From Girardia tigrina (taxonomy: Eukaryota): 55,115 nt of DNA. Location of the stretch: NCBI GenBank assembly GCA_001938485.1, contig MQRK01211111.1, forward strand, positions 1 through 55,115, written 5' to 3'. A program made the position numbers and the translations under genes. The notes under the pieces were generated by a model. It did no database searches, was not told where the DNA came from, and worked only from the letters and a program-made list of their open reading frames with translations. Each line of letters starts with the position of its first letter. The stretch's first letter is position 1. This document shows positions 10,240 through 44,700 of this stretch, in pieces.

Positions 10240-10330
10240 TCCATTTTAAAAACATTATTGCTGAAAATGTTTCGATAAGCCAATTTGATCGTCTTAGGCA
10301 AATTAATATAGAAAATCAATGTATATGGAA
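10240..10330 (-). mobile_element. Probable solo PLE 3' tail with degenerate hammerhead
   Basis: Minus strand reads TGC-CT(g)AAGA-C-GAT...ATC-GAAA-CATT-TT-CAGCA-ATAAT-GTTTTTAAAATGG, the same order of motifs as the other PLE tails. Confidence 0.4.
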
Positions 10331-11609
10331 ACCAAAAAAAAGTGTATTTTATTATTTGTATTGAAAATCATGGTTAATTATACACTATTATACATTAATT
10401 AATCTGCGAAATTGGAAAAGTATGTTTTGTATATTCGCAGAGATCGCCGACGATGAAAGAATTTATATTATTTAATTTTTACTATAATAATATAAAATTA
10501 ATTTAATAATAATTATTAAATAAAATACTATTTTGTGGATTACTATATGTATTAAAATTTAGAAAAATATTAAGTTGCTGAAAATATTATTGTAGTAACC
10601 AAAAAATTAAATATTAATATTTATAAATATATCTATATATTAAAATCCAATATTCATATTTATATAAGAAAAAACGGTTCAACACTACAAAAAAACTAAT
10701 TATAATTTTTGATTAAAAAACAGCTTGTTTATTCTAATTATTGTTTGTGAAAAATTTAAATAATAAAATTTTTTTTTCTGATTTTTAAAAATGGTTTTTG
10801 ATTTACAAGATTCAAATTGTGAATTGAAATCGTTTTGATATCATTTAAAATCGCTACTGTGCTTCAATTCAATCGATGAATATTGATAATTTCATCGCTG
10901 TCAACAACAACCCGCCGCTGACCATCGTCGAATTGTTGCCACTCGATTACTGTCACTCGAGCTATCCCTTTCGATTTGTGGCACTGCAATCATTTCGATA
11001 GGCTAAATACAAAGGTCACATCTCTGGATTCGACGACCTCTTTGAATTAATCGATCATGCAATTCAATCCCATCAATCGGCGCTCAAAGAGATCATTGTT
11101 TTGTTCGTATCAGCGAGTCGTCGAGCACTATCAACCATAATCGACAGAGGTAGTGGCCACTTGTATAAAGACCGAGCCCATAGTGGCGTGCCACCGTTAA
11201 AGATCCAATTTTTAAATGCCAATTTTTCCTTTCCGCTATTATTTATAGACGCGGGTACACTTCAAATAGAATTTATAAAATAAATTAAATAAATAAAAAC
11301 AAATCTATTTTTAGTTAATGAAAAAATGTTTATTTTATTTTAATCATTTATTTATGAGTAAATAGTAATTAAAATTCTTAATTTAATAAAAAATTATGAA
11401 ACATAAAATTAAAATGATAAAATTATTAATAAAAAATCACAATTGTTAATTATTATTTTTATGACTACATTTTATCAGAGCAGATCTTAATATAAAAATT
11501 AAATAGATTTTCCTCCAATCTAAAAATACAATTAATTAAAACAATAACGAAGATGTGAATAAAAGGAAAGATTTCAACAAACATAAATCAATCAAGTGTA
11601 ATTAATGTG

Positions 11610-11720
11610 AGTCTTGTGAGTCTTGCGAGTGTGGGGCCCCGTCCGTCTGTCCGTCGGGGTGCGTGTTTGAGTCTCATATCTCCAAGATTAATGCTGCTTT
11701 ACAAACGAATCGTGATTTAT
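11610..11720 (+). mobile_element. Possible helentron-associated (HINE/DINE-1-like) non-autonomous element fragment
   Basis: GTCCGTCTGTCCGTC (GTCY microsatellite) followed by ...CATATCTC, a layout typical of DINE-1/HINE 5' regions. Confidence 0.35.
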
Positions 11721-11899
11721 TTTTTCCCTGGAAAATCGTTTGTAAGAAATTTAACAAATTGATCGATTACGTGTTTTTTCCTTATTATAATATTGTTATT
11801 ATTACACTATGCTTGGTTTGAGAATTGAAAAAGAGGATGTTTCTCTTTTAAAATATTATTATATCATTGTTTAAATTTATTTATATTTATTAACCAAAA

Positions 11900-12600
11900 C
11901 ATGTCATTTGTACAACAAATTTTTATTTTTTAAGATAATTAATTTTGAGGGTATAACCGTCATCGTTAGGTCTCAAGAATAAAATAAGTTTTCATCTGCT
12001 TATATAGGCAAGCAGTGATTATGTCATAAATGTATTGTGATATCATCTAAACACGCTTAATAGAGTTTTTGAAAGACCCGTTTGCACATTAATCTTAGGA
12101 TCTAAAGATCTGATATAAAGTGCTTCACAGGCCACCCTCTTCCAATAGTTTTTAAAACGAATACACAGAATTTTAAAATCATTTATGTTTATATCTGTGA
12201 TCGAATTACAACCGTTTCTATGTTCGACAATATTACTCCCATCCACATTACAACAATATTCTTTGATCCTCCTACAGAGATGACGGGACGTCTTGCCCAT
12301 GTATGTGGCATTACACCCATTACATATAAACTGATATACGAGATCCGAACATATTCCAAATGGGTTTGGAGATTTATTACAAAATCTAAATAAATAATAA
12401 CGAACATAATCCAAACAAAATTTTTTAAATTAAAGACATTATTTACATATTTTTAAATGGAATGTTTAAACTGACAAATTCGTTTGGAATATTGAATGAT
12501 TAAAACGTATTTTAAATTTGGTGGTTTTTCTATATCATTTTAAATCGGTTTAAATAATTAATTTATCAATTGTTTCTTTGGTCAATTTGTCTTATATTAT
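11900..12600 (-). mobile_element. Penelope-like element 3' fragment (GIY-YIG endonuclease plus tail)
   Basis: ORF 12043-12414 reads LVYQFICNGCNATYMGKTSRHLCRRIKEY...NIVEH...FKIL...RVACEALYIRSLDPKINVQ, a PLE GIY-YIG domain. It is followed by TATATAAG, a degenerate hammerhead and AATAAA. Confidence 0.9.
11934..11972 (-). ncRNA. Degenerate minimal hammerhead ribozyme (PLE tail)
   Basis: GAC-CTaACGA-T-GACGG-TTATA-CCcTC-aAAA-TTAA-TT-aTC; four substitutions (lower case) from an intact hammerhead of the 17227-17265 type. Confidence 0.7.
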
Positions 12601-14084
12601 ATTCTCTTATTTATATTTATAAAATGAAATGAATAATATAAGTATTTTAAACTGCCACATGCAACTAATCAAATATTTTGTAATCAGCATAAATTACCGT
12701 CTGTTTTTAGAGAGTTTTTATCGACAATAAAAACAAACAAAAATAAATTGAGGATGAAAATTAAATGTTTGAAAATAAAAAATATTGAGATTTGATAATC
12801 TCTACGGAAAATAAAAGAAAAAGAAGACGTATCTGTGCTGTTTGTCTTTCAGTATTGAAAAGTTGGGTCGCGATGTATGACTTGCAAAACAGTATAATTC
12901 AACTACATAATAAATTATTTATTTTTTATAAAGTAATTATGAAACAATAATTATCACAAAAATATATAACGAAAAAATAAAAATATAAAAATTAAAGAAT
13001 AAAACTGCTTTTGGGAAGTGCTTCCGCTTTTCCCTTTATAAATTATTATCCACTTTTCCAAGAAATGATTTTCGAGAACATTTCTGTTTTTCTTCAAGAA
13101 AAAATAAAAAAAAATTATTTAATTTTTTAAATGATTATTATCTGAAACTTTTTTATATAATTATGAATACATTTTGCCCTTCTATTTCTGATAATGATTC
13201 CGAACTTCCGTATTTAATGAAGGAAATTTATGAATCTCAGTTTTGGAGACCTTACAAATATCCCCATCATGTTATGGCAATGCATCCCTATTCTTTACCT
13301 CTGATCATTCTTTTTAAAGAAAATAAATGTTTTCAACAATTAATATTAATAAAATGTTTAAATATGTAAGGAAAGAGAAAAAGACCTGAAAATAAATCTA
13401 AAAACTTATATGGACTTAAATATATAAATATAAATAAACTTATCTTCAAGAACAATCATAATTTTGAACCTCAAGGAAGCTGTAATAGCATATTTAAAGT
13501 ATATAGCTGAGAAAGATGAACTTTAAATACTCATATTTAATGTAGACCATATAAGTAAGTCATTGCTATTTTAACAATACTCGGTTACCAGACGTCTTTT
13601 ACTGCGGATTATGATAACAACTATTTATAAATACTATAAATTATAATAATTATTATTGATGTATAATAAAAAATAAATAAATAATAAAAAATAAATATCG
13701 AAACTGAGAATACACTGATTCAGGAAGTTTGTTTAAAAACATGATAAAAACATAGAAATACAGAAAAAGAAAAAAAGGAAACCTACAAAAACAAACACAG
13801 ATGTTAGCAACCAGAAAAGAAATTGAAAGTCAAGTTAAGTCAACGATACCAATAACTCAGACGTAGGATCAACGGTAAAATAATTGGGATCAATTATAAA
13901 ATAATTGGGATCATCTACAGGCTTACGCAGTTACCTATGGTATTTTAGATGAGTTCAAAGAGAATAAGGTATTTAGGTTGACGTTAACTTGCCTCTCAAC
14001 ATATTTGGTTTGCTTTTTGATCTATTCTGGCCCTTTTTGTTTCCATGTTTCAGAAAGGAAACTGCGTGAATAAAAGCCATGTTC

Positions 14085-14640: not shown

Positions 14641-16133
14641 AAATGAATATATTACTAAATGAATTTATAGCATTAAAACAACAAATATCAATGGAAAATA
14701 ATATTAAAATACATTCCGTAAATTGTAATTTTATTTATTTTCATTTCATTGAAAACATTAACAAATGTAAAAATGTCAATTATTTGAAAATTTCAGAAAA
14801 TGATAAAAATATTTTAGGATTTAATAATTGAAAAAAGAAAACATTTTCCAGAAATTAATTTGTCATTTAACGACGAGTTTTCCTCACAGGAGGATGAAAG
14901 AAGGAATTTGTCACATGTTGTAATTAATACGCCATCTTTGGTTTGGGTGTCGGGCATTATTTTATACGAAAATATAAAATATAACGAGAAAATATTTATT
15001 AATTTAATTTTCTTTTAATGTGTTAAAGAATTTCTCGTTTCGTTTGTACGGAAAGAAATTTAAAGTAAATAATACAGAGCGATTGAAACATAAAACAAAA
15101 AGTGAATAATTTATTGAAACAAGAGTTGTATTAAATGAATGAATGTGCGATTGTAAATTTTTTATACGTGTCATATTTTTATGGTTCGAGCTTTAGAAAT
15201 AAATATACTCTTTCTAATCAGATTAGGATTACACTATCAACTTTCACGTACTTGCTCCAAATATTGCTCTAATTCCGTCTAAATTCATCTAATTGTTATT
15301 TTCGACTGGTCAATTTCATTGGTGATACCTTTCTTCGTTATAAGTGTGAGCATCAATATTTATGGGTTTTTATTAAATTTTTAATTTTTACGACGAATAT
15401 CAATAGTACAAAATAACATTTCCGATTAATAACATTAATAATAACAATAGTAAAACATAACATTCGGGGATACTTTTATGGGATTTTAAGAATTTCAATA
15501 AAATATAATATGTCAGCTTAATATTACAACTCAAGAAGGCAGAAATTATATAAATTTGCATATAATTTATAATATATCTTAAATATAATTTTTAACATAA
15601 AAATTCACTGCGACTTCATCTTAATTTCAAAGGAAATTTTAAAAAAACTACCTAAAATTTTGTTCATTTCTATTTACTGATTTCTTTTTACCAGTAATTT
15701 AGTCCATGTTATAATATTTATTTACACAGTAGAAGAAAAATTAATATTCGAATGAGCATATAAGATTTCTGATTTTTACAAGGAAAAAGACATAAAAACA
15801 CAATAACATATGTTCATTTATTTATATTTCATTCATTTTGTAGCTAATATATAAATTTACCTGCATTGTACATTAGTATTATCATGACCAATAATGATAA
15901 TTATGATTGCATAATTTTGAAATGATAGATTTTACCAATTGTTTAGCTATTCACATAACAAATAACGCTGCACACAAAATAACATTTGTTTCATCATGAA
16001 AGCTTTTATGGCTTGGTACCAAGAAGATATATTTATTCACATGGAAATAACCAATTACTGAGTATGAAACAGGTCATTTTCACAGTAATCCTGAGAAACA
16101 AAATCATATTTCATTTATTTACTTGTTTCTGAA

Positions 16134-16515
16134 ATGGGAGAGAAGAAAGATACTACAGAGTCTCAAAAGACTGCTTTCTTGCTCTTCTTATAGGAGGCAG
16201 ACATTCAATTGGTGAAATCGCAGATCACATTGGAGTGTGTAAAAGGACCGTCCAGCGTATCAAGAAACATGATACTTCCAGTACTTCTCGAAAAGGGTGA
16301 TGTTGACGTAAACATCCTTGCAGAAAGACCGCCAAATTCGTCGGCTTCTGCTGCATAACCCCCAGGCAACTTCATATCAATTGACTGGTGCTATTCAAAT
16401 CACAGTAGTGTCAAGTGTGTCCTACAAAACAGTACAACGTAGACTAAAGGAACAAGGAGTTATGAGTGTAAAACCAGTTCCTAACCCTTTACTAACTGCT
16501 GCAATGCGCAAGAAA
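16134..16515 (+). mobile_element. Tc1-like transposase N-terminal (paired-like HTH) fossil
   Basis: MGEKKDTTESQK...GRHSIGEIADHIGVCKRTVQRIKK...SRKG*C*RK...DRQIRRLLLHNPQATSYQL...VSYKTVQRRLKEQGVMSVKPVPNPLLTAAMRKK. Confidence 0.8.
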
Positions 16516-16619
16516 CTCTTTCTAAATGAACTATTCATCATTGAAATGAAATGAAAAATATTTCGTACTAAAGCTCAGCTTGTTCTTGGAACCTGCGTTT
16601 TTCCCCATCTACGGTAGAT

Positions 16620-17165
16620 CGAATAGTTTCATCAAATTGTACATTTGTGAATAAATATGACTTCATAAAACATGAAAAATTTACTGTAAAGTGAGATAAA
16701 GATATTATGATCAAGGAAACGTCAGCATAATAATATGCATAAGAAAAAACAAACAGAAAAAAATATTAAGTTGATGCTAGATAGGTTACATGCTATAAAA
16801 TCAAGATAATGTCGATAATGGTAATGTAGTGTCCGTAATAACCAAATTAAGAAATTACCTTATACTGAAATTAGAAAGTGACACTTTATACAAGTTTAAT
16901 TGGAGAGACAAATCGTCATCTCAAAACACGGATTAGTGAAAAATCACAGTCGTGTATTTCGAGTAAGGTTCTTGATCACTGCAAATGTTCCAAAGGTCGA
17001 ACTTCATCATTTTCAAAAGAAACATTTTCTATTCTTCAGAAGAATTTTAATTAGCATCATGATGCATTATATTGTAAATCATTGCATATAAGATATTATA
17101 ACCAGTTTATTAACATCCAAAATGGGAAAAGAAAGTAGTCTCAATATTAAATATTATTTTAATAA
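16620..17165 (+). mobile_element. Penelope-like element fragment (internally deleted; GIY-YIG remnant)
   Basis: IGETNRHLKTRISEK...VLDH...TFSILQKNF...ALYCKSLHIRYYNQFINIQ at about 16899-17125. Confidence 0.75.
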
Positions 17166-17189
17166 AATAAAATAGTAACCAATAAAATT

Positions 17190-17615
17190 TAATAACAACA
17201 CTCATCCATTTAAAAATGTATTTTAAGACAATATATTTCGACGGATCTACCGTCATCTTCAGGTCACTAATTAATAATCGATTCACCTGTGTATAAATAC
17301 AAAAATGATGATTGTGTAATCGATTTCATGAAATCACGCTAATCAAAAATTCTCAATAAGCTGGTTGAGACTGCCGATTGAACATTGATTTTAGGGCAAC
17401 GTGACCTAATTAACAATGCTTCATACGACCTTCTCAAAATAACTGTCAAAATGCTCACAGAATTTTGAAATTATCAAAATTAACATCACAATTACATTTG
17501 TTCCTATGTTCTGCAATATTACTCTTACTCACTTTTCGAACATGTTCTTGAATTCTTGAAACTACTAAAATAAAAATATTAACACATTGAGGACGGTGAT
17601 ATTCATATGTAATAC
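17190..17615 (-). mobile_element. Penelope-like element 3' fragment with intact hammerhead
   Basis: RIQEHVRKVSKSNIAEHRNKCNCDVNFDNFKIL...YEALLIRSRCPKINVQSAVSTSLLRIFD*, the same family as 12043-12414. Lies tail-to-tail with the 16620-17165 fragment. Confidence 0.85.
17227..17265 (-). ncRNA. Minimal type I hammerhead ribozyme, core intact
   Basis: GAC-CTGAAGA-T-GACGG-TAGAT-CCGTC-GAAA-TATA-TT-GTC: stem I GAC/GTC, perfect 5-bp stem II, palindromic stem III (AATATATT), UH cleavage triplet. Confidence 0.85.
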
Positions 17616-19705: not shown

Positions 19706-19924
19706 TTTTAAAATTTTGAAAAAAAATTCCTAAATGATAACTAAAAATAGTTAAATAATATTTTAATTAATATTTTAATTAATATTTTAATATTTTAATA
19801 TTAAATAATAAAAAAAAATTTTTATAAAAACAACCACGTTTTTCAAGCATTACCAATGCACTAAAAAGAGGAAAATAATTTTTTTTCTAGACATGTGCGA
19901 AATTTTATACCTAACCAAAAACGT
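19706..19924 (+). mobile_element. HINE-like non-autonomous element, 3' part (truncated by gap)
   Basis: Inverted near-identical copy of 19975-20078. Contains ACCACGTTTTT and, at the gap edge, CCAAAAACGT, the inverse of the element's subterminal repeat. Confidence 0.55.
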
Positions 19925-19974
19925 NNNNNNNNNNNNNNNNNNNNNNNNNNNNNNNNNNNNNNNNNNNNNNNNNN
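19925..19974. other. Assembly gap (50 N)
   Basis: Run of N. Confidence 1.
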
Positions 19975-20226
19975 AATGCTTGAAAAACGTAGTTGTTTTT
20001 ATAAAAAATTTTTTTTATTAATAATATTATTTAACTATTTTTAGTTATCATTTAGGAATTTTTTTTTTCAAAATTTTTTTTATCAAATTGTATTTTCATC
20101 GGAACCAAGCCTGTATAAAAAAAATCAGCTNAATTGGATGACTGAAAGTGGTCGAAAAATCAATCGCAAGATTTGTTCCAGACAGACAAACAGACAAGAA
20201 AGCAAGCTAATAAAAACGTGGTAAAA
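19975..20226 (-). mobile_element. HINE-like non-autonomous element, 5' part
   Basis: Minus strand starts TTTTTACCACGTTTTTATTAGCTTGCTTTCTTGTCTGTTTGTCTGTCTGG (T-rich target, subterminal repeat, GTYT microsatellite). A near-identical start recurs at 55075-55115. Confidence 0.6.
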
Positions 20227-22229
20227 AACAAACAGATTTAATTTGACCAGAATTTTATGGTTAACTTAATTAAAATTTTATATGAAGTCAAATATTTTCA
20301 ACTAATATATTTTTTATCTGAAAAATGAACAATAAAATATAATGAAATGATAATTATATGTATAAACGAAGTTATGAGAAATAAAATTATATCCGAGACC
20401 CTTGACCTTTGACAAGTAACATTTTATGATAAGTATTACAATTTTATTAATCAAATTTGCGATGAAAACGAATAATAAAATTTTTAAATTTTTTTCTATT
20501 TAAGAAAAATTAAAAAAAATATTTAAACTATAATTAATAAAATCGTTTACTTCAAAAAATATTAAAAACAAATTTTCCAAAGGATTTTCGTATTTTGGCA
20601 GAATATTCAACGATTTAAATTTTAATTAATTAAAGGAATTAAAATATTTATAAACAGGAATTAAATTTACTTCGTCATTATTTTACAAAATGATTCAAGC
20701 GCAAATTATGAATTAATTTGTGAATAATATTTTTTTTCTTTTTTCAATGGGAAAAGATTTTAATAATAACAAAGTGAAATAAATGCCATTTGTTAATTGT
20801 ATATTTCCACAGATAAACTTTGCCATAATTTGCCTTTTAAATCGGCTTGGATGTTAAATTTAACTTTGTGGATTATTCCTTTGTCGGATCCTCGATTTTA
20901 TATATTTTACTTTACTATCTACGTCCTAAGGTTTTGTAGACTCCCTTAAATTGTTTATTATTATTAACTCTTTCCTAGCTGAATTAAAAATCATTAAATA
21001 ACTTTCTGAAATTTTCAAGTGATAAAAACAAAAGAGCAGTTGAAAAAAACGTGTAAAAATAATTTCTATTTAAAAGAGAAATCTTCCTTATCAATCAGGA
21101 ATAAAAATGCTGTTCGTATTTTTCAATAGAATCCTATTGTAGAGTGTATTTCCCACATTTGTATACAACGTTAATTATTATCTCTACTATATTGTAAATT
21201 TACTTCTTGCTATATTTAATCATCTTATTATTATTATTACTTCGTGATTTATATTATATTTATATAGGTATTAAATAATTCATATTATTATTTTTTAATT
21301 AATTCTATTAATATACGCCGCTAGGCGATAATAGAATATTTAAATGTATATTTAAATTATATTGATCGACGTATAAGGCGATAATTATTTATTATAAACA
21401 AATTATTAATTTGATCTGGAAGCCAATACTATTGTTTCAAAACTTCCTTACATTACTATCTCAGCCGGTTACAATTCCAATCATTTATATCGTTACGACG
21501 GTGTCACAAGTGAATCTATAGACGGTATTCTTCAATTACCAAGACTATTCGGATCTATTGTTTCAAATAATAAAAGAAAAAGAAGAAAAGACCAATTCGT
21601 TTCTACAAAGTAATTTTCAGGCTATATTTCTCTCCCTGACTGATCAATTTTCTTGTTGTATTTGGTGATCAAAATAATACCTTCTTTATCTTTTTTCCGT
21701 TTAAATTAATGTTAATACTATAGATATAGATTAATTAAAGATTGTTTATTATACATCTATATTTTTTTTATTTTAGAAGAATTTCAAGAAGTTTCAAACA
21801 TGCAAATTCAAAACATGGTTCTTTCGAGTAATCAGAAGAAGCAAGACATTAACTGTTTGTCGTCATCCATCCACCATTAGTAAATAATGATGATAATACC
21901 TATTTCAACTTAGTAAAATAAAAAATATCCAAAGAGAAGAAGATTTATATCCATAGTTTCTCGTAATGATAACGAATGCTTATATGTAAACAAACATCTA
22001 CTTATTATTTTGATTAAAAAGTATATAATCAAATTTAGATGACTTGATTTTCAGATGAATGTTGTGTCTTCAACATAAAAAAGATAAGAGCTATGTAAAG
22101 CATTTTAAAGACTTTAGTTTCAACTATGTTTTGAAGCTACCAAGGAGACTCATCAAACATTTAGAGATGGTTATGATGGGTTAGTCTCAGCAGTATTTAC
22201 AATTTTTATGTAATTAGTAAGGAATTTTA

Positions 22230-23867
22230 AAAAGGAATTTTTAAGCCAAGGGGCTCCACCAGCAAAATTACGTTGGTTACCGAAAATTCTTAAAGATGGA
22301 ATCCCAATGCGCCCAGTTCTTTTAATGATAAATACTGCACAATATAATGTTGCTAAAACTTTGGAAAGATTATTGAAGCCATTAATTAATAATCCACTAG
22401 AATGTAAAGATAGTTTTGAGTTTGTGAACAATATCTTAAATTATAAAATCAAAACTAATAAGGAGGTCATGGCTTCATTTGACATAGTTAGCTTATTCAA
22501 TAACGTACCTCTAAATGAAATGTTTTGTTTATGTACTAAATTATGGGATGAATTAGTTCAAAATAAAGTGTCTTCAATGAGTAGTAAAGAAATGAAAGCA
22601 CTTTTAGAATTTAGTACAAAAATGTTCCATTTATTTTTAATAATGAATAATACATGCAAGTTGATGGAGTGGCAATAGGGTCTCCATTAGCACCTTTAAT
22701 GGCTTCAATATTTCTCCAAAGTTTGGAGAAAAATTCAATTGTTTTGAAGGAAACATGCCTTTGTTTTACACTAGATATGTTGATGATATTTTTTTGATTT
22801 TTGAAAATAAAAACCATGTAAATAATTTCTTACAATTTATGTATGAACTTCATCCAAATATGAGATTTACCAGTGAAATCGAATCAGCAGGCAAGATTTC
22901 ATTTTTGGATGTATTAATTGAAAGAAAATCGAAGGGCTATGAAACTGAAGTATTTCGAAAGAGTACTGACACGGGTTTATACAATAATCCTATGAGTTTC
23001 TGTGATCCCAAGTACAATAAAAATATGGTGAAAGGATTACTTCACAGAGGTTAGAATTTATCATCTACGTATTGTAGTGTGGATAAGGGTATTGTTGATC
23101 TTAAAAGTAGGTTAGGAAATAATGGGTACAATAAAAATTATTTAAATAATTCGATAAAAAATACAATTGACTCAATTCGTGAAAAATCTAATAATAAAAA
23201 TGAAAACATTATATATAATGATAGTAGTAATGTAATAAAAATAATAAATTTAAAATTACCATTTTCTTAAGGCGCGAGTGAATTGAGAAAAGGTCTAATG
23301 AAAAAGGTTCCTTCGGGTTTTCATTTGCGGGTGATCTTTATAACTAATAACCTATCGAGATATTTCTTAAATAAAAAAAACTCCATCGGGTGTCCAAGCT
23401 AATCGAGTATATCAATTTAAATGTCACAAGTGTGAATCCTTGTACATTGGAGAAACAAATCGTCATCTCCGCACTAGAATAGCTGAACACACCCAATTGA
23501 GTAGGAATAGATCGATTTTAGATCACATTAAAAATGCAAAAATAGAGATAAAGTTAACTATGAAACTGAATTTACAGTTTTGAAGAAAAATTTTGACACA
23601 TATCATGAGAGGATAGTCACTGAGGCATTATTAATAAAGCATTTAAAACCATGCTTAATGTTCAAAGTGAATTATCCAATCATATTAAAATCTTTTAATA
23701 TTAAAAAAAAGATTAATTGCGTAATAGTCAATGTGCCATATAAATGACTTGTAATTTGAAATTTACTGCACAGCTGAAGATGCCGTAATGGCGAAACATG
23801 TTTTGCAAAATAAAAAACTTTTAAAATGGCGTTTTTTCTTTATTTTCTTTAAAAATAAATTGCCATT
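22230..23867 (+). mobile_element. Penelope-like retroelement, 5'-truncated, RT + GIY-YIG with frameshifts and stops
   Basis: RT motifs: LPKILKDGIPMRPV, MASFDIVSLFNNVPL, QVDGVAIGSPLAP, YTRYVDDIF, LHPNMRFTSE..ISFLDV. Endonuclease motifs: VYQFKCHKCESLYIGETNRHLRTRIAEH, ERIVTEALLIKHLKP. 3' tail carries a hammerhead. Confidence 0.95.
23767..23807 (+). ncRNA. Minimal type I hammerhead ribozyme in PLE 3' tail
   Basis: CAG-CTGAAGA-T-GCC-GTAAT-GGC-GAAA-CATG-TT-TTG: intact core, 3-bp stem II, palindromic stem III AACATGTT, short stem I (CAG/TTG with a G-U pair). Confidence 0.8.
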
Positions 23868-26800
23868 AAATCTAAATGTTATGTATATATTGCATACAGA
23901 TAAATATCTATAATATATAATGAAGAAAAATAATTAATCTAAGAAATCGCAGATTAATAAATCTTCTTTGATTATAATAACAAACTTTAATTTTATTTTA
24001 ATCAAAACTTTACTTTAAATATTTCGATATAGTGTTTTCTTTATCTATCCCTTCTTCTTCATGTTGATTTTCTTTAAACCTTTTAGTATGACCAAAATAA
24101 CTGTTTTCCTTCACACAACTTGTTCTCTTGTTGTATTAATGTACTCAGTATTAATTTCATAACATATACTATTGCATGATCCATATATTCTTGTTAAATA
24201 TTTATTATTAACTCAATATATATAGAATATAAATATAAAAAATAAATCAATAAATTTTTAAATATATCTTAATTGCTCACAAATTATAAATATACTAAGC
24301 ACATTTAAAACGTTATGTATTTTATTTTATTTAAATTAATATCACTTGTATAATACAAATAAAAAATAAGATTTAATAACATCTTATAACAAAATATAAA
24401 AATAAATTGATCAATCGAAATTTCAGTTTTATTTAAAGTTGATAAAACTTATAAAAATATCATTTAAAAAAACACTCGAAAAGTAACATTTATTTTTTTT
24501 ACCATTAAAAACATATTTAATTTATAAAATCAAATTAAATAAAGGCAATATTTTAGATATATCGGTTATTTTAATATTGTATTCTAGGTTCTTTAAAAAA
24601 TGTATTAATATATATCAAAACATTCAAATGTTGCTGTTAAGTTTTATGGATGTTTTGTGACATTCGTAATCTTTTATTAAATATCTCAAAAACTCTGAAA
24701 AATACTTGTTTCTCAAAGACAATTTTCGTTGATGTATTTCAAAGAAATATTTATTTTTATGAAAATAATAAAACGAAAACGAAAATAATTATAATTTTTC
24801 AATGATAGGAATAAAAAATAAATTTCCCTATCATCAAAATAAAACAGTAAAACAAGAAATGTATTTGGCAAAGACAATCCAAGATTTGATAGGAATCTCC
24901 ACATCGATTCCCTAATTTCTGGGGAGTAGCCAATGGAAAGAGCGAGTCGTGATCAGCCAGCAACGCTATTCGCCTTCGTAACATATTTCGATCAAGACTC
25001 ATTGACGGAACAAGAACGACAACAACAACGACACCAACAACATCAACAACAAAAATAACAACAACAACAAGGGAGATGGATTGGCCAACAGATTCAACGA
25101 TGGCCTGACAGAATCTGATGCTTCAATACATATAAATAATTAATTATTCCATCATAACTACTGACGAAGTTATCATTTAGATAATTTCAGGCTTATTACA
25201 GAGATTTATTGTGAGTCTTCGCAAAATATCAATCGATAATAACAGGTTTCTTTTTAGCAACAAAAAATATTAATGATTATTTGAAAACGATATTTTTTCT
25301 CTCTTTATTTTCAAATTAAAAAAATTAATTGCTTTGAAAAGTTTTAAAATATTAAATTAATAAATTTAACAAATATATATATATATATATATTTATTTCA
25401 TGAAATATTTTTTTTATTATAAATATTGTACATATAATATAATTGAAAAATATTTTTTTTAAAAATCGATAAAAAGAAGAATATTTTTAAGATTAAAGAA
25501 ATGCAATAAATAAAACAAAAAATACCTTATGTTTTTTTAAGAAAAAAGAATTTTTAGAAGTTATTTTTTATTAAATAGAAAAAATATGTTTCATAAAAAA
25601 GTTTTCGTTTTTTACGTCGTGTTTTAAACTTTTAATATTTATAAAATACTTTCGTAGTATTTTTCTTCAAATGTTTTACAATTAAATCGCAAATTTCCTA
25701 AATACATAAATAAAATATTTTTCTGTTTTATTTATTTTTTCTTAAGAAAATCAATATATAATAATATTAAACGTTATGTTTTAATTCGTTGTTTTAATTA
25801 ACCACTGAAATCGTTTCATTATTTTGTGATAATTTTCGAAATGAGAAACTTTATTTTTTTCTGTTTTTTGTTAATAATATATTACATTATATATAATCCT
25901 TACAAGTCAAAGTTCTCTAACTTTAAATCTGATAATTTATGGGGGACCGGAAATTATTTTTTTAATTAAATACCTTACATTTTAAAATAATATAAAAATA
26001 TATTTAATAAATTTATTTTTATTGGAAAAAGTCATTCGTAATAAACTAATAAATAAATAAAGGCGGTAATATACAATAATAATCTTTTAATAACGATCAA
26101 ATAATGGAGCAATTGTCTTTTGTACTCATCAATGTTTACAAATAAACATAATATTTATTAATTATTTATACATTGTTCAATATTAAATAATTGTTTTTCA
26201 TGGATGTCTTTCAGAATTGAATTTCTTAAATGAAAAAGAGAAATTTAACGTTTTAAAAATATTTTATAAAAAAACCTTTTTATAATGATCATTTTGTATT
26301 TGCTATTAAAAGCAAAAACCAATTAAGGTAAATCAAATTTTATTTAACAAAAGATTAAATTTATAATTTAAAGATTAATTTTTAAATATTCGTAAAATTA
26401 TGTATTTAGTTTAATACATAAATAAATTATTTATAATAATTGAAGATTGCGGAGGTAATTTTGTAAATTGAACGAAATATTTTATAAAAATCATAGAATA
26501 AACTTGAAAAAAATAAGTTTTGTCTTTTTTTCTTTCCTGAAAGTAATTTTATATTTTGATGAATTAATTTTTTTGTAGAGGGTAACCGTTAAAGCATTTG
26601 GTAGTTCCATGGAATCCCAAAACTTACTGAGCCTACATTTGTAATTTAAATTTAGTAAATACTACTTGGATGAAAGAATAATTTTGAAAATATATGAGTG
26701 AATTTGTTTTACATACCTTACAACTGTTTCTATCACATGTAAGTTAAAATTGTTAAGAAACATTAATATTTATTAATTTAATTCATTGCTAAATAAATCA

Positions 26801-27509: not shown

Positions 27510-27760
27510 TTGCAACATAAAATTATATTTCAAAAATTATTGGGAAGGAGTCTCGTGTGAGGCATTAATAATTAATGTCCAATCAAGTGACTCATTAACT
27601 TTATTGAAAGTTTTTTCGTGAAACAGTAATTACATAGTTGTTTGCGTAACCATATCATATATAAGCTTAACAGCTACAATTAGAATTACCTGATGATGAC
27701 GCATATTCCATCGATATATATTGCTCTAATAAAAAATTTTTTTACTAATTTTCCATCTTT
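27510..27760 (+). mobile_element. Penelope-like element 3' fragment
   Basis: FKNYWEGVSCEALI-INVQSSDSLTLLKVFS*, then TATATAAG (27658), a degenerate hammerhead and AATAAA. Confidence 0.8.
27688..27724 (+). ncRNA. Degenerate hammerhead ribozyme
   Basis: AC-CTGATGA-T-GACGCATATTCCATC-GAtA-TATA-TT-GC; GAAA is mutated to GATA and stem II is mismatched. Confidence 0.65.
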
Positions 27761-29505: not shown

Positions 29506-29830
29506 TCATACATGTTTGTTGCGTCATCGGCAGTAAATATATTGTGTTTCATAAAAAATATAAAATAAAGATATTTGTAGAAAATTTAATTTACATATTA
29601 ATAGCGGCCTTAATTTACCCATTTGAAATATTGATTAATGAGATGTGGTGTCTAATAAATAATGATTCACTGAACTGCCGCTCGTAATGTGAAGCGAAAC
29701 TCTTTTATAGAAAGGAAATTTCGTCCTTTGAAACAGAAGATTGTCTATTCATGTAATGTAACCAATAATTAAGATCCTTACACGAATTATCACTTCTTCG
29801 AATTTTGAAAGATGGTTTGTCTTTTAATGA
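29506..29830 (-). mobile_element. Penelope-like GIY-YIG C-terminal remnant with eroded hammerhead
   Basis: SFASHYERQFSESLFIRHHISLINIS is homologous at DNA level to 37660-37742. Downstream ATTTACTG-CcGATGA-CGC..AAACATGTA (29506-29534) resembles the 23767 hammerhead. Confidence 0.6.
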
Positions 29831-32034: not shown

Positions 32035-32296
32035 ATGATTACAAAATCAATTATGCAATTACTGTTTCACGTAAAAGATTTTAATACAGTTGATGAGTCA
32101 CTTAATTGGACATTAATTGGTTGCATGAAACATTAATTACGTAATTGATTGCACAATCATCATTTTAACATATATAAGCTTAGCAGCTACAGTCACAATC
32201 GCCTGATGATGACGAAAATTCCATCGAAATATATTGCTCTAATAAAAAATTGTATTTTAAAATGGCGTCCTTAATTTTTAAAAAACGATTGCCATT
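32035..32296 (+). mobile_element. Solo PLE tail with 5' inverted segment
   Basis: 32035-32118 is the reverse complement of the ORF end and UTR seen at 27570-27650. 32119-32296 is the direct tail with TATATAAG (32171), hammerhead, AATAAA, AAAATGGCG and TTGCCATT. Confidence 0.85.
32201..32237 (+). ncRNA. Minimal hammerhead ribozyme, core intact, stem II weakened
   Basis: GC-CTGATGA-T-GACGAAAATTCCATC-GAAA-TATA-TT-GC. Confidence 0.7.
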
Positions 32297-33295: not shown

Positions 33296-34092
33296 TGTCA
33301 AGATGTTTGAAAAAGTGATAATCAGTAGGCGAGATGTCATGTGAGTATGGTGAATGACTCAAAGTATCGTAGCCAAGTTCATTCAACCGTTGTATTGTCA
33401 GACGTGCTATCGATGGCCGAGCGTTGTCGTGGAGAAGAATAGGCTTCTTCTTATTGACTAATGGTGGTTGTTGTTGTTAGAATTTCTGTTTCATTTTGAC
33501 AATTTCATGACAGTATCTCTCTGCTGTAATTTTTTCTCCTGGATTAAGGAAGCTATGATGAATAACATCGGCTACAGACCTCCATACAGTCACCATCATC
33601 ATTTTTGGTACATTTTCAGCCTCGGAAAGGGTTGCGGATCGTGGTCCAACCATTGAGAAGAACGTCTCCGATTGTCGTAGAGACTTTTTATCACATGCTA
33701 CAATTCGGTCCAGAAACGGATCATTCTTCTTCCACAGAAGAAGTGAATACGATGCCTCAAAACTATACATCTTTTGATTGTCCTTTAATTTGTATAGAAT
33801 CCATTTATCCAGTTTTTTCGACTTACCAATGTAACGCAGATGGTTTGAAATTGTTCCTGTCGTGACATCTAGTTCATCCGCAAGCTCTCGAACTGTTGTG
33901 TGTGGATTTGCTTCTCCTAGAGCATTCACATTTTCAAATTCAATAGCAGGTTTCCGTCCACGGCCATCATCATCTTTGAGGGTCTCATCTTTTTCTTGAA
34001 ATATTTTGAAACAACGTTGTAACATACGTTCGTTTATGGTTCCATCGCCCAATGCATCGTTGATATGACGGGTGGCCTCCGATGCTTTTTGG
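33296..34092 (-). mobile_element. Mariner transposase fossil (Hsmar1/cecropia-like)
   Basis: GDGTINER...GRGRKP...NPHTTVRELA...IGKSKKLDKWI...FLDRIVACDKK...MMVTVW...PGEKITAERYC, continuing after a frameshift as PILLHDNARP...SPYSHDISPTDYHFFKHLD. Confidence 0.9.
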
Positions 34093-35729
34093 TTTCATAT
34101 AATAAATTTAAAATTTAAACAATGTATCATAGAAATATAGAGCTTTTCATAAGCTTTAAAATTATGCATAAAACATAAATAAATGAAAAAGATTTATTTG
34201 AAAACATGATCAAAAATCAGGACCATTCAAAAAACGACATTATTTTTTAAACAAACTAATAAATGTAGGAGAAACTGGAAGGAAAATGTGGCAGTGAAGC
34301 GATTGAGAAAGAAATTAAGAAAGTCCTTTTTTTCAAGACTATGCAAAACGACCAGATTAATATTTGTTGGTGGATCATTATTTGTATATAAAATTTTACG
34401 ATAGTTTACCGCCAAATATTAACGAAATTGTAATGAAACGAGTGTAAATATTTATTTTCAAATAATTTTACATCTTAACCTTAGACAATTTATTAAACAT
34501 CTATAATTGGAATTGAAATATATAATAATTTTAGTATTATAATTTAACTGGCGTTCTTTTCAGTTTTGGAAAAAAAGGATTGCAATGCACCCGGATCCAT
34601 TGGGGCGCGCTCACCTCGGAGATAATTATTGTTATTTGTTGAGATTCCCTCTCATCTTTTCTTGTCAACGGGTAAATTGAATTGAAAACTTTGTTTTAAA
34701 TGAATTCATGCCCATTTTATTTTTGACCACCAGCACATCAGTATAAATTGCGTGTTTCAGTTTCCGATATATGAGACTATTTGTCTTATTAATCTGATAC
34801 TTGCCACTGAGGATTTCGAGGAGTTGCCGGGCAAATGGAACCCATTCACTCGTAATTTGTCCAGTTCCAAAACCGCATGCATAAATGATTTTCAATTTCA
34901 CAATTTTTATTTAACAATAGTCAATAATCAATATTCACTTTGATAATATTGGGAGAATATTCCGGTCGACGTCTGTGCAATTCCAATTTGAAGGATTTGC
35001 AAGAAATCTTCATTTAAATTCATATTGTGTAATAAAATTCAAATTTATATTGTGCAAAATGTTAAAAGTAATGATAGTTGTAAAATAACCTCACGGAGTC
35101 GCGCCGATCAGTAAGCCCACTTTAACTAAGTAAATAATAAATAAAAAATGCGGATATTTTAACTATTATATTATAATAACTTATTTAAACAGGAAGAAGA
35201 ATTAATTGTTGGAAGATCGCAAAAATGAGAGATTGTCAGAAAGAGCAAATAATGAATTGATAAGTTACTCTCGACAGTACTTGGAATGTTCAATAGCAGA
35301 AAACTTGCGATATTCTGTAAATGGTCAATTGAATAGTATTATATGTGGTTGAAATTGCGATTATAAAATATCGTTCTAAATATTGTTGATGACAATTTTC
35401 TATTAGGTAATGGATTTATTCTGACACGAAAATCATTTATGAAAATCATCACGAAAATTATTTTACTGGTATACAATGATGAATAATATACTGATAATAT
35501 AATTTATATTAAAACATTTGTTAGGTTAAAAAAAATCTTGCTATGTTATTTTGAAACCCTAAATTCCACATCATATTTACCAATATACCTTATAACTGTC
35601 TCGTTGACTGAAATAATAACAATGTGTAATAGTTGTACGATATACTTTTTTATGTTATTAATAAACTTTTTATTATTTTAGTCTTTTGAAAGCTAAGGTA
35701 TCGTATTTTATTCTTATCATATTCTGATC

Positions 35730-37590: not shown

Positions 37591-37624
37591 TCCCGTAGAT
37601 ATTTGGCAAAATCTTTAATTTATT

Positions 37625-37960
37625 TTAATTAAAGATTTCAAGAATTGAGACGTCCTTTGCTCATTTTAAATGTTAATTAATGGGTTGTAGTAGTGTCTTA
37701 TTATTAATGATTCACAGAAAAGCAGCTCATATTTTGAATCAAATCAGAAGAGATTCAGTTTTTACAATCTAACCAATTAACAAGAAACTTATTCAATGGA
37801 CTTGATTGTAAACGGTTATTATTTCCATTCATTCTATTGACAAGAATATCAAGAAAAGGAACTATGTTATTTACTTTCCTTTATGTAGTGAATTTATTAT
37901 TAGGATGAAGATCATTCAAGAATAATAAGAACATTTCTATCATGGGTTTGTTTCTAAAAC
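37625..37960 (-). mobile_element. Internally deleted Penelope-like fragment (RT thumb fused to GIY-YIG end)
   Basis: FLNDLHPNNKFTT*RKVNNIVPFLDILVNR followed by FDSKYELLFCESLIIRHYYNPLINI. Confidence 0.75.
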
Positions 37961-40900: not shown

Positions 40901-41705
40901 TTGATAATTTTGAAATAATTATTAATTATTTTATTGAATTATTATTCTAATTATTAATCTATTTATTCTTCAGTTCGGTCAAACCTCTAATTTACTGATT
41001 AAGAGAAAATATAAATTATATAATTAATAAAATATAAAATATAATGTGTCTCCTTACAAAAGAATTATTAAAATCAGTCTGCTAAAAGTCTAAAATGATA
41101 AATATCATTATTGTCAAATATTATCGTTTAATGCCAGATGTGGTTCAAGAAATAAATAAAAGTAAACAAATAACTCAAATTCATTGCTTGATAAAAGGTT
41201 TATAAAGTGGGAGGGGCTGAAAGATTTATGATCTCAACGGCAACCATTAGCCGTGTTAGATAATTACGACTTTATAAATTATATTTCATCATCTTTTGTC
41301 AAAAAATAATAAAGTTTTGAAAACAGTATTAATTGAAATTAATGGAAATTGTTTTTCTTCTATAATAATTTATATTTTATATTTACTTTATCTTATAATT
41401 GGAAGAAAACCATTAAAGGTAAAAAAATGAAATAGAGAAAATATAGAAATATATTTTCAAACGGTAAATGAATAAAGTGAAAATAATACTTTATATTTTT
41501 AAGAATAGGGTGAACTTAATACAAATAAAAAATACACGTAAAACTCCGAGAAAAGAATAAATATTTATCATCACTATAAAAGAAGATTATGAACATTGGT
41601 ATATAACTCTGAACAGAAAGCAAATATATTAATTACATTCCACAGAAATATTTTAAAAATAGAAGATATAATGTGCGTATTCAGGGCATGTAGAAATGAA
41701 TTCCC

Positions 41706-41748
41706 ATTGCTGATGATGGATAATATTCCGAAACATATAAGAATAAAC
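41706..41748 (+). ncRNA. Candidate degenerate hammerhead
   Basis: CTGATGA-T-GGA-TAATAT-TCC-GAAA-CATA-TA, immediately followed by GAATAAA. Stem I is poorly paired. Confidence 0.45.
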
Positions 41749-44700
41749 GGAAATATACAAATATGTGAAAGGTATATAAGGTATTTTTTCTTAAGCCACA
41801 CATTTGCGTATTGACATATTAGTTATCGATACTAAAATCTACATATCTTTGTATTTATATGAAAAGGCTTTCCATTGCCAAAATATTATTACATTACCAT
41901 GAACGGATATCGCCTAAAGTGCACAGCTGATGTGACAAATATCCAGAGTTTTCAGTCCAAATAATTATTTTTATGGTTACATTTATTATTATTAGACGAA
42001 AAGCAAAAGATGTAGTTTGAACAAAGCAAGCCAATTGCCTTCCTAAAGAAACAGTCGCTATTGTACACAAAATACAGAATTTATAAATAGTATTTCTGAT
42101 CATAAAATCAATTTGAGAAGAATTTTTATAAGAATTGTAAAAAACATTTCAGACATTCCATGACAACCTAAAAAAAATTGTGAACTTTATACAATTTAAA
42201 TGGAAATATAATGTTGAATTTGAAAATGAAATGTATTGTATCAGGCAAGAGGAAACAAATACTTGTCATATAAGTTACATAAAATGAAGAAAAAAAACTT
42301 TTAAAATGTCCTCGAAATTTATAAACATTATTTATTTTAAAAAAGATAACCATTTCACTTTAGTTCTAAAAATTGGTTCAAATTTTCCTGTCACTTAAAT
42401 CCCTAAGAATTTTTTTAATCTAGTACTTTTATTGACCAAATTATTAATATGTTAAATTTATACAAATTTATACATTTGTAAATTTAAAAAATCAATGTTG
42501 CTTGTGATCGAAATATATTACAAAAATAATAGATTATTATTAAGAAACGAATATAAACTCATTCTTTATTCAATCCACTTTCCAGGATTCCCATTCTCTG
42601 ATTATTTAAAATTATTTGGCAATACTAATTTTGGATCAAACTAATTACTCCCAATCTCATTTCGAACTAGAAATTATTCGATTATATATTCTTTTTTGTT
42701 CTGGAACAAATCTGTTTAGTTCATTTCTCCATGGGACTCATTTTCGTTTGCTTTATAGTGATTGTAAAAAATAGAGATTAGGAAGTTTTATCAAACCTCT
42801 ATTTTTACTATAAAATAAAAGTTGCCAACAAAGCTAAACTAGCCCAACTCAATATATCAAGGAATTACGTTAGGCTAATTTAGTGTTCGAGAAAATAAAA
42901 CAATTATGTCAAGAGAAAAATAACGATCAACGAATAAAAAACTCTTAATTCAACACAAAAAAATTACATACGAGAGAGAGAGAAGGGCACGGATAAATCT
43001 CGATTTCGATTTGTGTTTATTGTTCAAAGGTTTCAAAGGAACGATCTTCGGTTCTAACAATATCGATGGAAACGTCAAAGAATCATTCGGTTGCGCAACG
43101 AGATTTTGAGGAAGTAGATTATATGGAGAGATACACCTTCAGTGGGGAATATTGATAAATTGGTTTGCGGAAAATTCCTTTACGAACCGATTTTACAGAA
43201 AAATGCTTGGTAGGTAGTATAATATAATTGTAATAAGTAATAATAATGTATTTAAAATTTTCGATCAATATTTAATATTGTTATATTATTCATATACACA
43301 CATATAATATATATAATATTAATATATGTACTTTTGAAAGTTTTTCCCTCTTACGACTTTCTAAAATTGCACATCTTCTATTTCTATCTTTATAATTTGG
43401 ATTCTGAATAATCTCAATATGACTACTATAAAAGAATAACAAAAATCACACGTAAAATAAGCAATCATTCGGTGATACCATTAACAATAAAAAACTGACA
43501 AATCAAACTCGAACGAGTTACAAAAACACTCGAAATCAAATACAAAAATCAAAGAACATGCAAATAAAATAATCACCCAGTGTCAGTAAGTAGGGCACTA
43601 CAGTGATCAATTGTTCCAAAACATCTTATTTGTCTCTTAATTTTTGCTATTGTATATATATATATATATATATATATTATTTTTTAGAGTATATTTGTAA
43701 TTTCTGTTGGATATCTCAACCATCGAAGAAACCAAGAAGGAACGGTCATCTAGTAATGTTATTATAACCACATTTTTATTCGAATTTCAAAATAATAAAG
43801 CATTCAGTTGACAAGAATGAAGGTTCTCCTTTTCAAAGGTTGTGTTCTAATTCTATTTAGATTGATATATTTCTAAAAATTTCTTAACACATGAAAACAT
43901 TTATTAAATGATATCATTACTATTAGATTATATTTTGTCACTATTATATTGCTATTATTTTATATCAAATTTCAAAGGTAACACACAGAACTAATAAACA
44001 TAAGACAATATAAAGAAAATATAAACAAGAACAAACATTTTAACATTAAAGAATTATATTTACATTTACAACATTATCAAATTATTTTAATATTATTTAT
44101 ATTATAATATCGTTTGATAATAATCAGTATCAGAAATAAAATTGTATTTAAAATAATTTCTTTTAAAATTAAATATTATATTTATATTAAAATAAAACAT
44201 TAATTAAACATTTTAAAATTTCGAAATTGCAAATAAAACTCATTAATAAATATCTAAAATAAACATATAACTCATTTTTTTCATCATTAATAAAAATTCA
44301 ATGAAAACTTATAAATCCCTTGTAATAAATTGCTTGTTTCAATCAGTCAATTGCTTATACATATAATAATTAATTATTTGTTTAAATCAGTCAAAAAATA
44401 TCGTTTATGTTATCAATTTAAAATATCATTTGAAATAATTTAATTGTTTCAATTTACAAAAATATCAAAGTTCATATATCTTATTTCCAGCGATATTGAT
44501 CCATTTAATTATAACTTTTTCATAATTAATTAATTAATTTATTAATTACTTTTTCTTTAAATCCTTTCTACAATTATTATTACGTAAATGTATAATTTCG
44601 AATGTACCGCTGTTATCAAATAAAGTTATTATAAAATATAATATCAAAAATATTATTAAATTCTAGAAAAATAATAATAATAATCATAATAATAATGATC

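Follow-up and report, generated by a model that had tools for sequence, protein, structure and literature searches.

RESULTS

Penelope-like elements in the window

The window (the whole 55,115-nt stretch of Girardia tigrina contig MQRK01211111.1 analysed here, with a GC content of about 25%) contains five hammerhead-bearing tails which, judged by their sequence, are the pseudo-LTR (pLTR) 3′ ends of decayed Penelope-like elements (PLEs) from four families, A to D. The elements show the features of EN+ PLEs: the reverse transcriptase (RT) and, at the C-terminus, a GIY-YIG endonuclease lie in a single ORF, the pLTR carries the first ORF codons (the translated tails match the N-termini of proteins P0046 and P0053), and 5′ truncation, an inverted piece and an optional tail of 30–40 bp occur in the window. 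The open frame of an outside relative, L121, has 744 codons, and ORF architecture and length appear to fit the Penelope/Poseidon clade.

The most complete layout is that of family A on the plus strand. A frameshifted, 5′-truncated ORF (22229–23698) encodes RT followed by GIY-YIG (a weak Pfam RVT_1 match and a GIY-YIG match; tblastn E-value 3e-95 to P0046). Downstream are a candidate C/EBP-like bZIP site (23716–23725; identified by pattern and by motif comparison with PMC6144830), an exact TATAWAWR box that begins 13 nt further on (23739–23746) and 35 nt before the hammerhead core, and a minimal type I hammerhead (23767–23808) with core at 23774, palindromic helix III and a predicted cut after 23802. 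No variant is listed among the family A contigs for 23722–23766, a span that includes the TATA box. The ATG that opens the ORF (23788) is part of stem II, on its 3′ arm, and AATAAA (23809–23814) is read in frame, encoding Asn-Lys early in the ORF. The rest of the pLTR and the optional tail (23815–23890, delimited by contig depth and loose ends) comprise ORF codons with the K-W and K-L-P-L landmarks to about 23851, then about 35–40 bp of optional tail to about 23885–23890.

Family B is represented by two plus-strand tails (82% identical over 126 bp). The first (27641–27733) follows a remnant of the GIY-YIG C-terminus (27526–27621; tblastn E-value 5e-6 to P0006) and carries a bZIP site with one mismatch (27641–27650), a TATA box (27658–27665), a damaged core with GATA (27690), a predicted cut after 27722 and AATAAA (27728–27733). 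The second (32136–32290), which includes the ORF start with K-W, lies head to head with an inverted, 5′-truncated piece on the minus strand (32035–32118) that ends short of the TATA box; it has two bZIP sites (32136–32145 and 32148–32157), a TATA box (32171–32178), a core at 32203, a predicted cut after 32235 and AATAAA (32241–32246).

The other two families are on the minus strand. In family C a GIY-YIG C-terminal remnant (17342–17613; 94% to P0005 residues 430–460) precedes a tail (17200–17320) that has the ORF start with K-W, a bZIP site (17320–17311), a TATA-like box (17299–17292), a core at 17262, the best preserved hammerhead among the window copies, a predicted cut after 17230 and AATACA (17222–17217). 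Family D consists of a GIY-YIG remnant (12025–12591; Pfam GIY-YIG E-value 8e-6, tblastn E-value 9e-61 to P0001) and a tail (11900–12027) with a bZIP site (12027–12018), a TATA box (12006–11999), a damaged core (11969), a predicted cut after 11937 and AATAAA (11927–11922).

Three further motifs had been described as eroded versions of the same cassette; a TATA box with at most one mismatch 30–40 nt upstream is found in 0/3, and so is a bZIP-type site. The hammerhead-like remnant at 10240–10300 (minus) has a TATA box only if two mismatches are allowed; that at 29506–29534 (minus) has a partly deleted stem II and no TATA box with up to one mismatch 30–40 nt upstream; the plus-strand motif at 41706–41748 (core-like at 41710) has AATAAA 2 nt after the cut and lacks helix I, a TATA box and a nearby PLE ORF remnant. 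The PLE copies of the window are themselves decayed relics.

The idea of portable solo units of about 130 bp finds no example among the five window tails: in four cases a remnant of the ORF C-terminus comes first, and the 32203 tail follows the inverted piece. Non-coding units without an ORF remnant, as in non-LTR retrozymes, and tandems were not seen in the window. Protein-anchored locus searches gave one true PLE tail among three loci in metagenome contigs (L121; L122 and L123 are unrelated), 0/1 in genome contigs (L124 is unrelated) and none in viral contigs and phages.

The ORF starts inside the hammerhead

Minimal type I hammerheads, defined by intact CUGANGA and GAAA boxes, stem II, a palindromic helix III and NUH, are present at 17262 and 23774, in L121 and, with a mismatch in stem II, at 32203. 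Two of the five window copies have damaged cores: 27690 (GATA for GAAA) and 11969 (CTAACGA and AAAA). The stem II mismatch is C-A in both 27690 and 32203, and helix III is palindromic in all copies. An Rfam scan of the window matched no hammerhead family (two chance-level hits), as expected because the hammerheads are minimal. In free folding, the helices of the hammerhead came back for 23774 and 17262 alone. The span of helix I seems to grow with the distance from TATA to core (about 2, 3, 3–7 and 7–8 nt for 32, 33, 35 and 37 nt), a trend that is suggestive only, with pairings partly drawn by eye and best computed fits that differ for 27690 and 11969.

The ORF start codon sits inside the hammerhead, in agreement with the N-termini of the two full-length proteins P0046 and P0053, which show the hammerhead-coded pattern and then the K-W and K-L-P-L landmarks, as in the tails. 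By eye, these two are the only ones with such an N-terminus among the 48 proteins compared; the other full-length relatives start at the hydrophobic helix that follows. A search for homologues of the N-terminus found nothing. We considered AAAATGGCG, located after the hexamer, as a restart ATG and rejected it; these letters encode K-W-R in the frame of the ORF.

TATA box and bZIP-type site upstream of the hammerhead

The preliminary description placed a TATA box 32–37 nt before the core in five independent PLE tails. The coordinates and the spacing were borne out, while the number of independent cases drops from five to four families. Measured from the first T of the box, the distances are 32 nt (27658 to 27690 and 32171 to 32203), 35 nt (23739 to 23774) and, on the minus strand, 37 nt (17299 to 17262 and 12006 to 11969); a former value of 37 nt for the 23774 copy had been counted from the CA that precedes the exact TATAAATG. 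The consensus TATAWAWR is exact in 4/5 copies, and the box of the 17262 copy, TATTTATA, has one mismatch.

At random positions of the window a TATAWAWR box starts 30–40 nt upstream in 2.1% of cases (exact) or 17.4% (one mismatch). Exact boxes in three of the four families give a binomial p of about 4e-5, and boxes with at most one mismatch in 4/4 a p of about 9e-4, both for an interval of 30–40 nt that was picked post hoc. The combined TATA–gap–core pattern had three matches in the sequence versus 0.01 in shuffles. L121, whose tail was found in metagenome contigs through protein similarity alone and is the sole outside tail with DNA, has a TATA box with one mismatch at −33 from the core. Thus TATAWAWR with at most one mismatch stands 32–37 nt before the core in all six ORF-linked tails (window and L121). 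The claim that spacing is kept despite differing intervening sequence also stood up: the layout of the motifs is fixed across five families whose spacers are unalignable. Among 120 core-like control matches in viral contigs, which have 37% GC and are not composition-matched to the window, an exact TATA box at 30–40 nt occurred in none and a one-mismatch box in four. By eye, the Hydra-clade consensus sequences have a TATA box, at 38–40 nt, in only 2/6.

A bZIP-type (C/EBP-ATF-type) 10-mer ends 11–13 nt before the TATA box in all five families (four in the window and L121) against a background of 0.3%, for a pattern drawn post hoc from the tails of families that share ancestry. Its variants are identical to, or one base off, the CEBP, ATF4-CEBP and PAR cores of PMC6144830. 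This site was absent from the earlier reading of the window.

The hexamer after the cut and the 3′ ends

AATAAA had been noted within about 10 nt of the cleavage site, which holds: counted from the predicted cut, it begins after 5, 5, 6 and 9 nt, and the AATACA variant of family C (17262 copy), likewise confirmed, after 7 nt. The exact hexamer is thus 5–9 nt after the cut in 3/4 window families (background in the window 5.0% per 11-nt stretch; naive p about 5e-4). It falls in about codons 8–14 of the ORF start, with the coding frame running through it, and occupies two different reading frames among the families. Given the encoded peptides, its probability is 0.13–0.58, and it is common in ORF bodies as well (five copies in the intact L121 ORF, nine in the window ORF). 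Unlike what an LTR-type R region would call for, a poly(A) signal is not shared by every functional family member: AATAAA after the cut is absent in L121 and not encodable by residues 1–30 of P0053. In published metazoan hammerheads (Cervera Fig. S3) a hand count gives AATAAA after the cut in 9/56 against 0/56 in the 5′ flank, with 1–3 after the cut as a rough guess of what chance would give; in the Hydra clade it is seen, by eye, in 1/24 distinct rows and 0/6 consensus ends.

By eye, U/GU-rich sequence lies 3′ of the hexamer, and genomic copies extend 40–80 nt past it. Family A copies end near 23851 and 23885–23890, with loose ends in (TA)n rather than poly(A); no poly(A) loose ends appear among the contig matches listed, mostly from presumed-RNA runs. 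Both cut and hexamer are spanned by X11 record 8 (23418–23890), X17 records 9 and 15 and X6 record 23, contigs of RNA or presumed-RNA runs that may derive from DNA or pre-mRNA. The depth of X6 contigs changes from 87.6 (23424–23791) to 223.6 (23762–23805) and then 118.5+25 (from 23779), a step that would fit starts near 23762–23775 and ends near the cut. We dropped this evidence since contigs, the form of all RNA data used here, cannot show RNA ends; moreover, that the run is RNA was a guess, and contigs that overlap are counted twice.

DISCUSSION

Comparison with known systems

With the U3-R-U5 arrangement of retroviruses and LTR retrotransposons the window tails share a promoter, here a putative one, ahead of a terminal repeat unit in which a poly(A) signal could lie, and with plant LTR retrozymes they share a ribozyme inside a terminal repeat (PMC4918200); retrozymes seem to be without promoters (PMC7761336). 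The window tails differ from both in that their repeat arises as a by-product when partial tandems form, the stretches that would be R and U5 code for protein, and the signal is not present in every family.

Transcription start sites within the pLTR have been reported (PMC2377424, PMC6765202). The Penelope of Drosophila virilis, the one dissected Penelope promoter, starts in the upstream pLTR and has a 2-bp helix III with a 2-nt palindromic insert (PMC2377424; PMC4209133), but its promoter is internal and TATA-less with a DPE, and a 5′ intron ends at helix I (PMC2377424); in the window tails the upstream bZIP site and TATA box point straight at helix I, and the ATG would be reachable without an intron. 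Similar in layout are the EN+ PLEs of Adineta vaga (Pen2a_Av), with an ORF of about 820–840 aa, a pLTR with a putative TATA box and the first ORF codons, an optional 30–40 bp tail and an inverted 5′-truncated piece (PMC3846280), whereas the available text of that paper does not relate the TATA box to the hammerhead and names neither an upstream activator site nor a poly(A) signal. In the anole Poseidon element PAc, too, the ORF begins within stem II and the ATG precedes the cut; there are two 3′ ends inside the start of the ORF, separated by about the length of one tail, and the targets are AT-rich; its ribozyme is dispensable in vitro (PMC11167929). As far as the available text goes, its promoter is placed in the pLTR by assumption, with no TATA geometry, and reads neither start nor stop at the cut (PMC11167929).

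The minimal hammerheads of metazoan PLEs (PMC4209133) have the same CUGANGA-U, stem II of 4–6 bp, GAAA, palindromic helix III, short helix I and AU-rich 3′ flank, and are predicted to work as dimers; unlike them, two of the five window copies have broken cores, and activity in the window is a prediction. Supplement file 2 of that paper mentions neither TATA, promoter nor polyadenylation. The mammalian TISU element has its ATG at +5 to +30 of the start and a median leader of 12 nt; its core AAGATGGC resembles the hammerhead's GAAGATG.C, a resemblance only, with the window copies off at 1–2 positions (PMC2518114).

A probable promoter aimed at helix I

Of the view that the tails hold an LTR-like R region, the promoter half is supported, and strengthened by the L121 spacing, the bZIP-type site and the place of TATA+30, which lands between core −2 and −7, on helix I's 5′ edge or close to it, and precedes the core ATG by 8–13 nt; as for the poly(A) half, it is neither established nor refuted. 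From the spacing of TATA box and bZIP-type site before the hammerhead it follows that the RNA likely begins at the ribozyme. We consider it somewhat more probable than not that the two sites serve the next copy of a tandem as its Pol II promoter and that AATAAA is at most an optional, family-specific signal. As readings of sequence motifs, the promoter part is well supported and the optional poly(A) signal is possible.

We infer promoter activity, a short-leader capped mRNA, dimer-only cleavage and a read-through template. Pol II would start at the 5′ edge of helix I, and the capped mRNA would have a leader of about 8–13 nt (about 19 nt in family A) and the ribozyme at its 5′ end. The hammerhead would cleave only as a dimer; this would remove cap and start codon, and therefore translation of that RNA would end. 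Reverse transcription would use uncut read-through RNA and begin within the start of the ORF downstream, which is what has been reported for the anole element.

A true R region, which we regard as possible but rather unlikely, would have transcription start at helix I and polyadenylation after the second hammerhead; the unit RNA would carry a ribozyme at each end, the dimer would be cut and the RNA circularized, and internal priming would regenerate the hammerhead, the 40–80 nt past the hexamer and the partial tandem. Such a circle model has been proposed (PMC4209133), and it agrees with palindromic helix III in all copies, with the hexamer or its AATACA variant after the cut, kept in two reading frames and followed by U/GU-rich sequence, and with the 9/56 hexamers after published hammerheads. 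However, the hexamer is absent in L121 and P0053, scarce in the Hydra clade and frequent in ORF bodies, contigs (possibly DNA or pre-mRNA) cross both cut and hexamer, and the dominant substrate of the anole element is uncut RNA (PMC11167929). A circular template could restore the sequence downstream of the hexamer.

It is quite unlikely, in our judgement, that transcription starts independently of the TATA-like box, from an internal, TATA-less promoter as in D. virilis (PMC2377424) or from elsewhere, the box being kept for another reason, e.g. so that the endonuclease can target the pLTR of its own element, or for antisense transcription. The anole endonuclease does prefer AT-rich DNA, and its own pLTR is among the DNA that it can nick (PMC11167929), in A. 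vaga the TATA box is readable in both directions (PMC3846280), and a leader of 8–13 nt is unusually short; yet the geometry of bZIP site, TATA box, predicted start and ATG is fixed in five families with unalignable spacers, and 5/6 boxes are non-palindromic, ending in AAG, ATG or AAC or reading TATTTATA. Chance in AT-rich DNA plus shared ancestry, with no selection, is highly improbable: the low GC content, the four to five families, the post hoc patterns and the non-conforming eroded copies would suit it, but the TATA and bZIP backgrounds, the viral controls and the persistence of motifs while spacers diverged all go against it.

The promoter reading can be carried further, to a proposal that we find unlikely as a whole: about 100 bp in which activator site, TATA box, start site, ribozyme, start codon and poly(A) signal are superposed would be a true U3-R-U5 analogue. 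With the promoter spaced for a start at helix I, the unit RNA would bear hammerheads at both ends, and their cleavage as a dimer, with loss of cap and AUG, would switch it from mRNA to circular template, internal priming explaining the pseudo-LTRs and tails.

According to the literature (PMC7761336, PMC8557442), what PLE hammerheads do in vivo is unknown. With a promoter that points to helix I and a start codon inside the ribozyme, the predictions would be exact: 5′ ends between core −2 and −7, cap and AUG lost on cleavage, and a poly(A) peak 10–30 nt after the hexamer or none. The choice between the circle model and the uncut read-through model would thereby become testable in an abundant family.

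PLE remnants and tail families

The window is AT-rich (∼25% GC) with few genes, and it contains remnants of mariner (transposase, 33477-34094, minus strand), Tc1 (transposase, 16133-16551, plus strand) and PLE elements. The PLE ORF remnants were located by tblastn with 10 related PLE proteins as queries. Four of the five hammerhead-bearing tails, named here by the position of the CUGANGA core, are immediately preceded by such a remnant: 22229-23696 (+) ahead of tail 23774, 27526-27618 (+) ahead of 27690, 17342-17613 (−) ahead of 17262 and 12025-12591 (−) ahead of 11969. The fifth, tail 32203, is preceded by an inverted 5′-truncated piece (32035-32118), the usual PLE layout (PMC3846280). An RT fragment (37725-37955, minus strand) has no tail that we could find. 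The preliminary description had proposed portable solo units of ∼130 bp; the window contains neither a solo unit nor a tandem arrangement. Tails 27690 and 32203 share 82% identity across 126 bp, and therefore the five tails, previously counted as independent, make four families: A (23774), B (27690 and 32203), C (17262) and D (11969).

Two GIY-YIG fragments, at 16890-17135 (+) and, as a weak tblastn match, at 9824-9928 (+), are 77% alike over 74 bp. Each points at the 3′ end of a tail that is on the minus strand and belongs to a different family (17262 and the eroded copy 10298, respectively), as though PLEs had inserted into the ends of other PLEs. A long inverted repeat at 19710-20077 (arms of 52 and 46 nt, 94-96%) flanks an assembly gap and is either MITE-like or an assembly artefact.

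Promoter-like geometry upstream of the ribozyme

The TATA-box consensus is TATAWAWR. As described previously, a TATA box precedes the core in all five tails. Its first T lies 32, 32, 35, 37 and 37 nt upstream; four boxes are exact and the remaining one has a single mismatch. An exact box is present 30-40 nt upstream of 2.1% of random window positions, and a box with one mismatch upstream of 17.4%; with this range picked post hoc, p is ∼4e-5 for exact boxes in three of the four families and ∼9e-4 for boxes at one mismatch in all four. The sole outside tail that we obtained, L121, from metagenome contigs (located by protein similarity alone, one true locus of three), has a one-mismatch box at −33; it is followed at 2480-2790 (−) by a decayed intron-less sequence, by eye presumably calmodulin-like. 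Viral contigs, at 37% GC not a composition-matched control, contain 120 core-like matches, of which none has an exact box and four have a one-mismatch box. Family A has no listed variant at 23722-23766 in the contigs of four runs (40 of 41 rows listed), and the box is therefore the family state. The eroded copies, previously offered as further examples, do not conform (0 of 3), and a box at 38-40 nt was seen by eye in two of six Hydra-clade consensus sequences; both counts weigh against the generality of the spacing.

A 10-mer, RTKRCRYMAY, overlooked in the preliminary description, ends 11-13 nt before the TATA box in tails 32203, 23774, 17262, 11969 and L121. Tail 27690 has it with one mismatch, ending 7 nt before the box, with a 6-nt deletion there. 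The background at gaps of 5-15 nt is 0.32% for exact matches (not a held-out figure, the pattern having been derived post hoc from all six tails) and 3.9% at one mismatch. Variants of the 10-mer match the CEBP, ATF4-CEBP and PAR cores in the accessible part of PMC6144830 or differ from them by one base, and some are one base off the palindromic CEBP site given there. With the gaps of activator site and TATA box fixed and the spacers unalignable, the arrangement has, as far as sequence can suggest, the look of a compact Pol II promoter.

Start codon within the ribozyme

A spacing of ∼30 nt from TATA box to start is an established rule. Position TATA+30 corresponds to core −2 to −7, which is 8-13 nt upstream of the core ATG and coincides with or adjoins the 5′ edge of helix I; the RNA is predicted to start there. 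Tails were translated from the ATG at core+6 (core+14 for family A). In 32203, 17262, 23774 and L121 the frame goes on to K-W, and in family A further to K-L-P-L; in 11969 the W codon is now a stop, and in 27690 K-W is lost. Two full-length related proteins have N-termini of the same type: P0046 (841 aa; MAGNPPKLITKINCEKWR, with KLPL at 26-29) and P0053 (821 aa; MMSMNSTKYIFRKW). The tail translations match these starts; therefore, from stem II on, the tail DNA encodes the N-terminus of the following tandem unit. The anole element is alike, its ORF beginning at stem II and the cut lying 26 bp after the ATG there (PMC11167929). By eye, the hammerhead-coded peptide is present only in P0046 and P0053, the two closest proteins, and absent from the 46 other full-length relatives, which begin at the hydrophobic helix downstream; from this comparison, this lineage appears to have shifted its start codon into the ribozyme.

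In family A (23777-23790) the core ATG lies in a different frame from the ORF, and a single codon separates it from a stop overlapping the true start (TAATG). Family A contigs have this as their majority state, the core containing a second ATG; it would be a tiny upstream ORF or a leaky-scanning arrangement. The mammalian TISU element, used for very short leaders, has a core (AAGATGGC) that resembles GAAGATG.C of the hammerhead core (PMC2518114).

Every hammerhead copy has a U at the cut and a helix III segment of 6 nt; in L121 and the five main copies this segment is a palindrome. Helices I and II of 17262 and 23774 form unaided in folding; the cores of 27690 and 11969 carry substitutions, and both ribozymes are predicted to be dead.

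From the accessible parts of earlier papers, hammerheads occur in pseudo-LTRs (pLTRs) (PMC4209133), the PLE start site is in the upstream pLTR (PMC2377424, PMC6765202), rotifer pLTRs hold a putative TATA and the first codons (PMC3846280) and the ATG is located in stem II (PMC11167929). Our literature search, covering few subscription papers, returned no description of a fixed activator-TATA-hammerhead spacing or of a poly(A) signal after a PLE or retrozyme ribozyme.

The hexamer after the cleavage site

The preliminary description read the tail end as an LTR-like R region, with polyadenylation just after the ribozyme. A full R region combined with a circle route seems doubtful to us. In its favour, AATAAA starts 5, 5, 6 and 9 nt downstream of the predicted cut, and the variant AATACA 7 nt downstream; against a background of 5% per 11-nt window, AATAAA in three of four families has a naive p of ∼5e-4, and the hexamer is retained in two reading frames. 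By hand count in Fig. S3 of Cervera and De la Pena, as far as accessible, AATAAA follows the cut within ∼15 nt in 9 of 56 metazoan hammerheads (six contiguous and three spanning a column gap; rough expectation 1-3), and in none of the 56 5′ flanks. However, the hexamer is absent after the L121 hammerhead and cannot be encoded by residues 1-30 of P0053 (those of P0046 can), and its probability given the encoded peptides is 0.13-0.58 (L121 codon usage). It is also frequent in ORFs (five in the intact 2.2-kb ORF of L121, nine in the 1.5-kb window ORF) and rare in the Hydra-clade (1 of 24 distinct rows, two duplicates of 26 having been removed). The hexamer positions hold for the window tails; an LTR-like R region is a possible reading of them, and not a universal one.

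Genomic copies of family A have two ends, at ∼23851 (where 20 contigs of DNA run X1 have a (TA)n loose end) and at ∼23885-23890, corresponding to pLTR end plus tail, 40-80 nt past the hexamer; neither carries poly(A). The RNA that was copied must therefore have extended beyond the presumed poly(A) site, and for this either uncut read-through RNA or a circle is required. Cut and hexamer are bridged by contigs, possibly DNA- or intron-derived, of three runs, one of RNA and two presumed to be RNA, and there is no poly(A) among the loose ends listed (∼6 per run, of lists with 409 and 229 further rows). In two families (23826-23868 and 32262-32293) the K-W and L-P codons are overlapped by an inverted repeat, AATGGC...GCCATT, which spans the first 3′ end (∼23851); by analogy with the anole element, it is possibly an RT-initiation stem-loop.

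Proposed mechanism

On balance we think it probable that each unit is driven by the preceding 3′ UTR and moves through uncut RNA, the hexamer being optional. The 3′ UTR of one PLE unit would serve as promoter for the following unit, with transcription beginning at helix I; cap and AUG would survive because the ribozyme would be silent as a monomer, and dimer cleavage, should it occur, would strip both. Uncut RNA, primed within the downstream ORF start, would yield the two observed genomic ends. An internal TATA-less promoter in the style of D. virilis (PMC2377424) is unlikely, and chance very unlikely. The promoter geometry is real and selected-looking, in an otherwise known element end.
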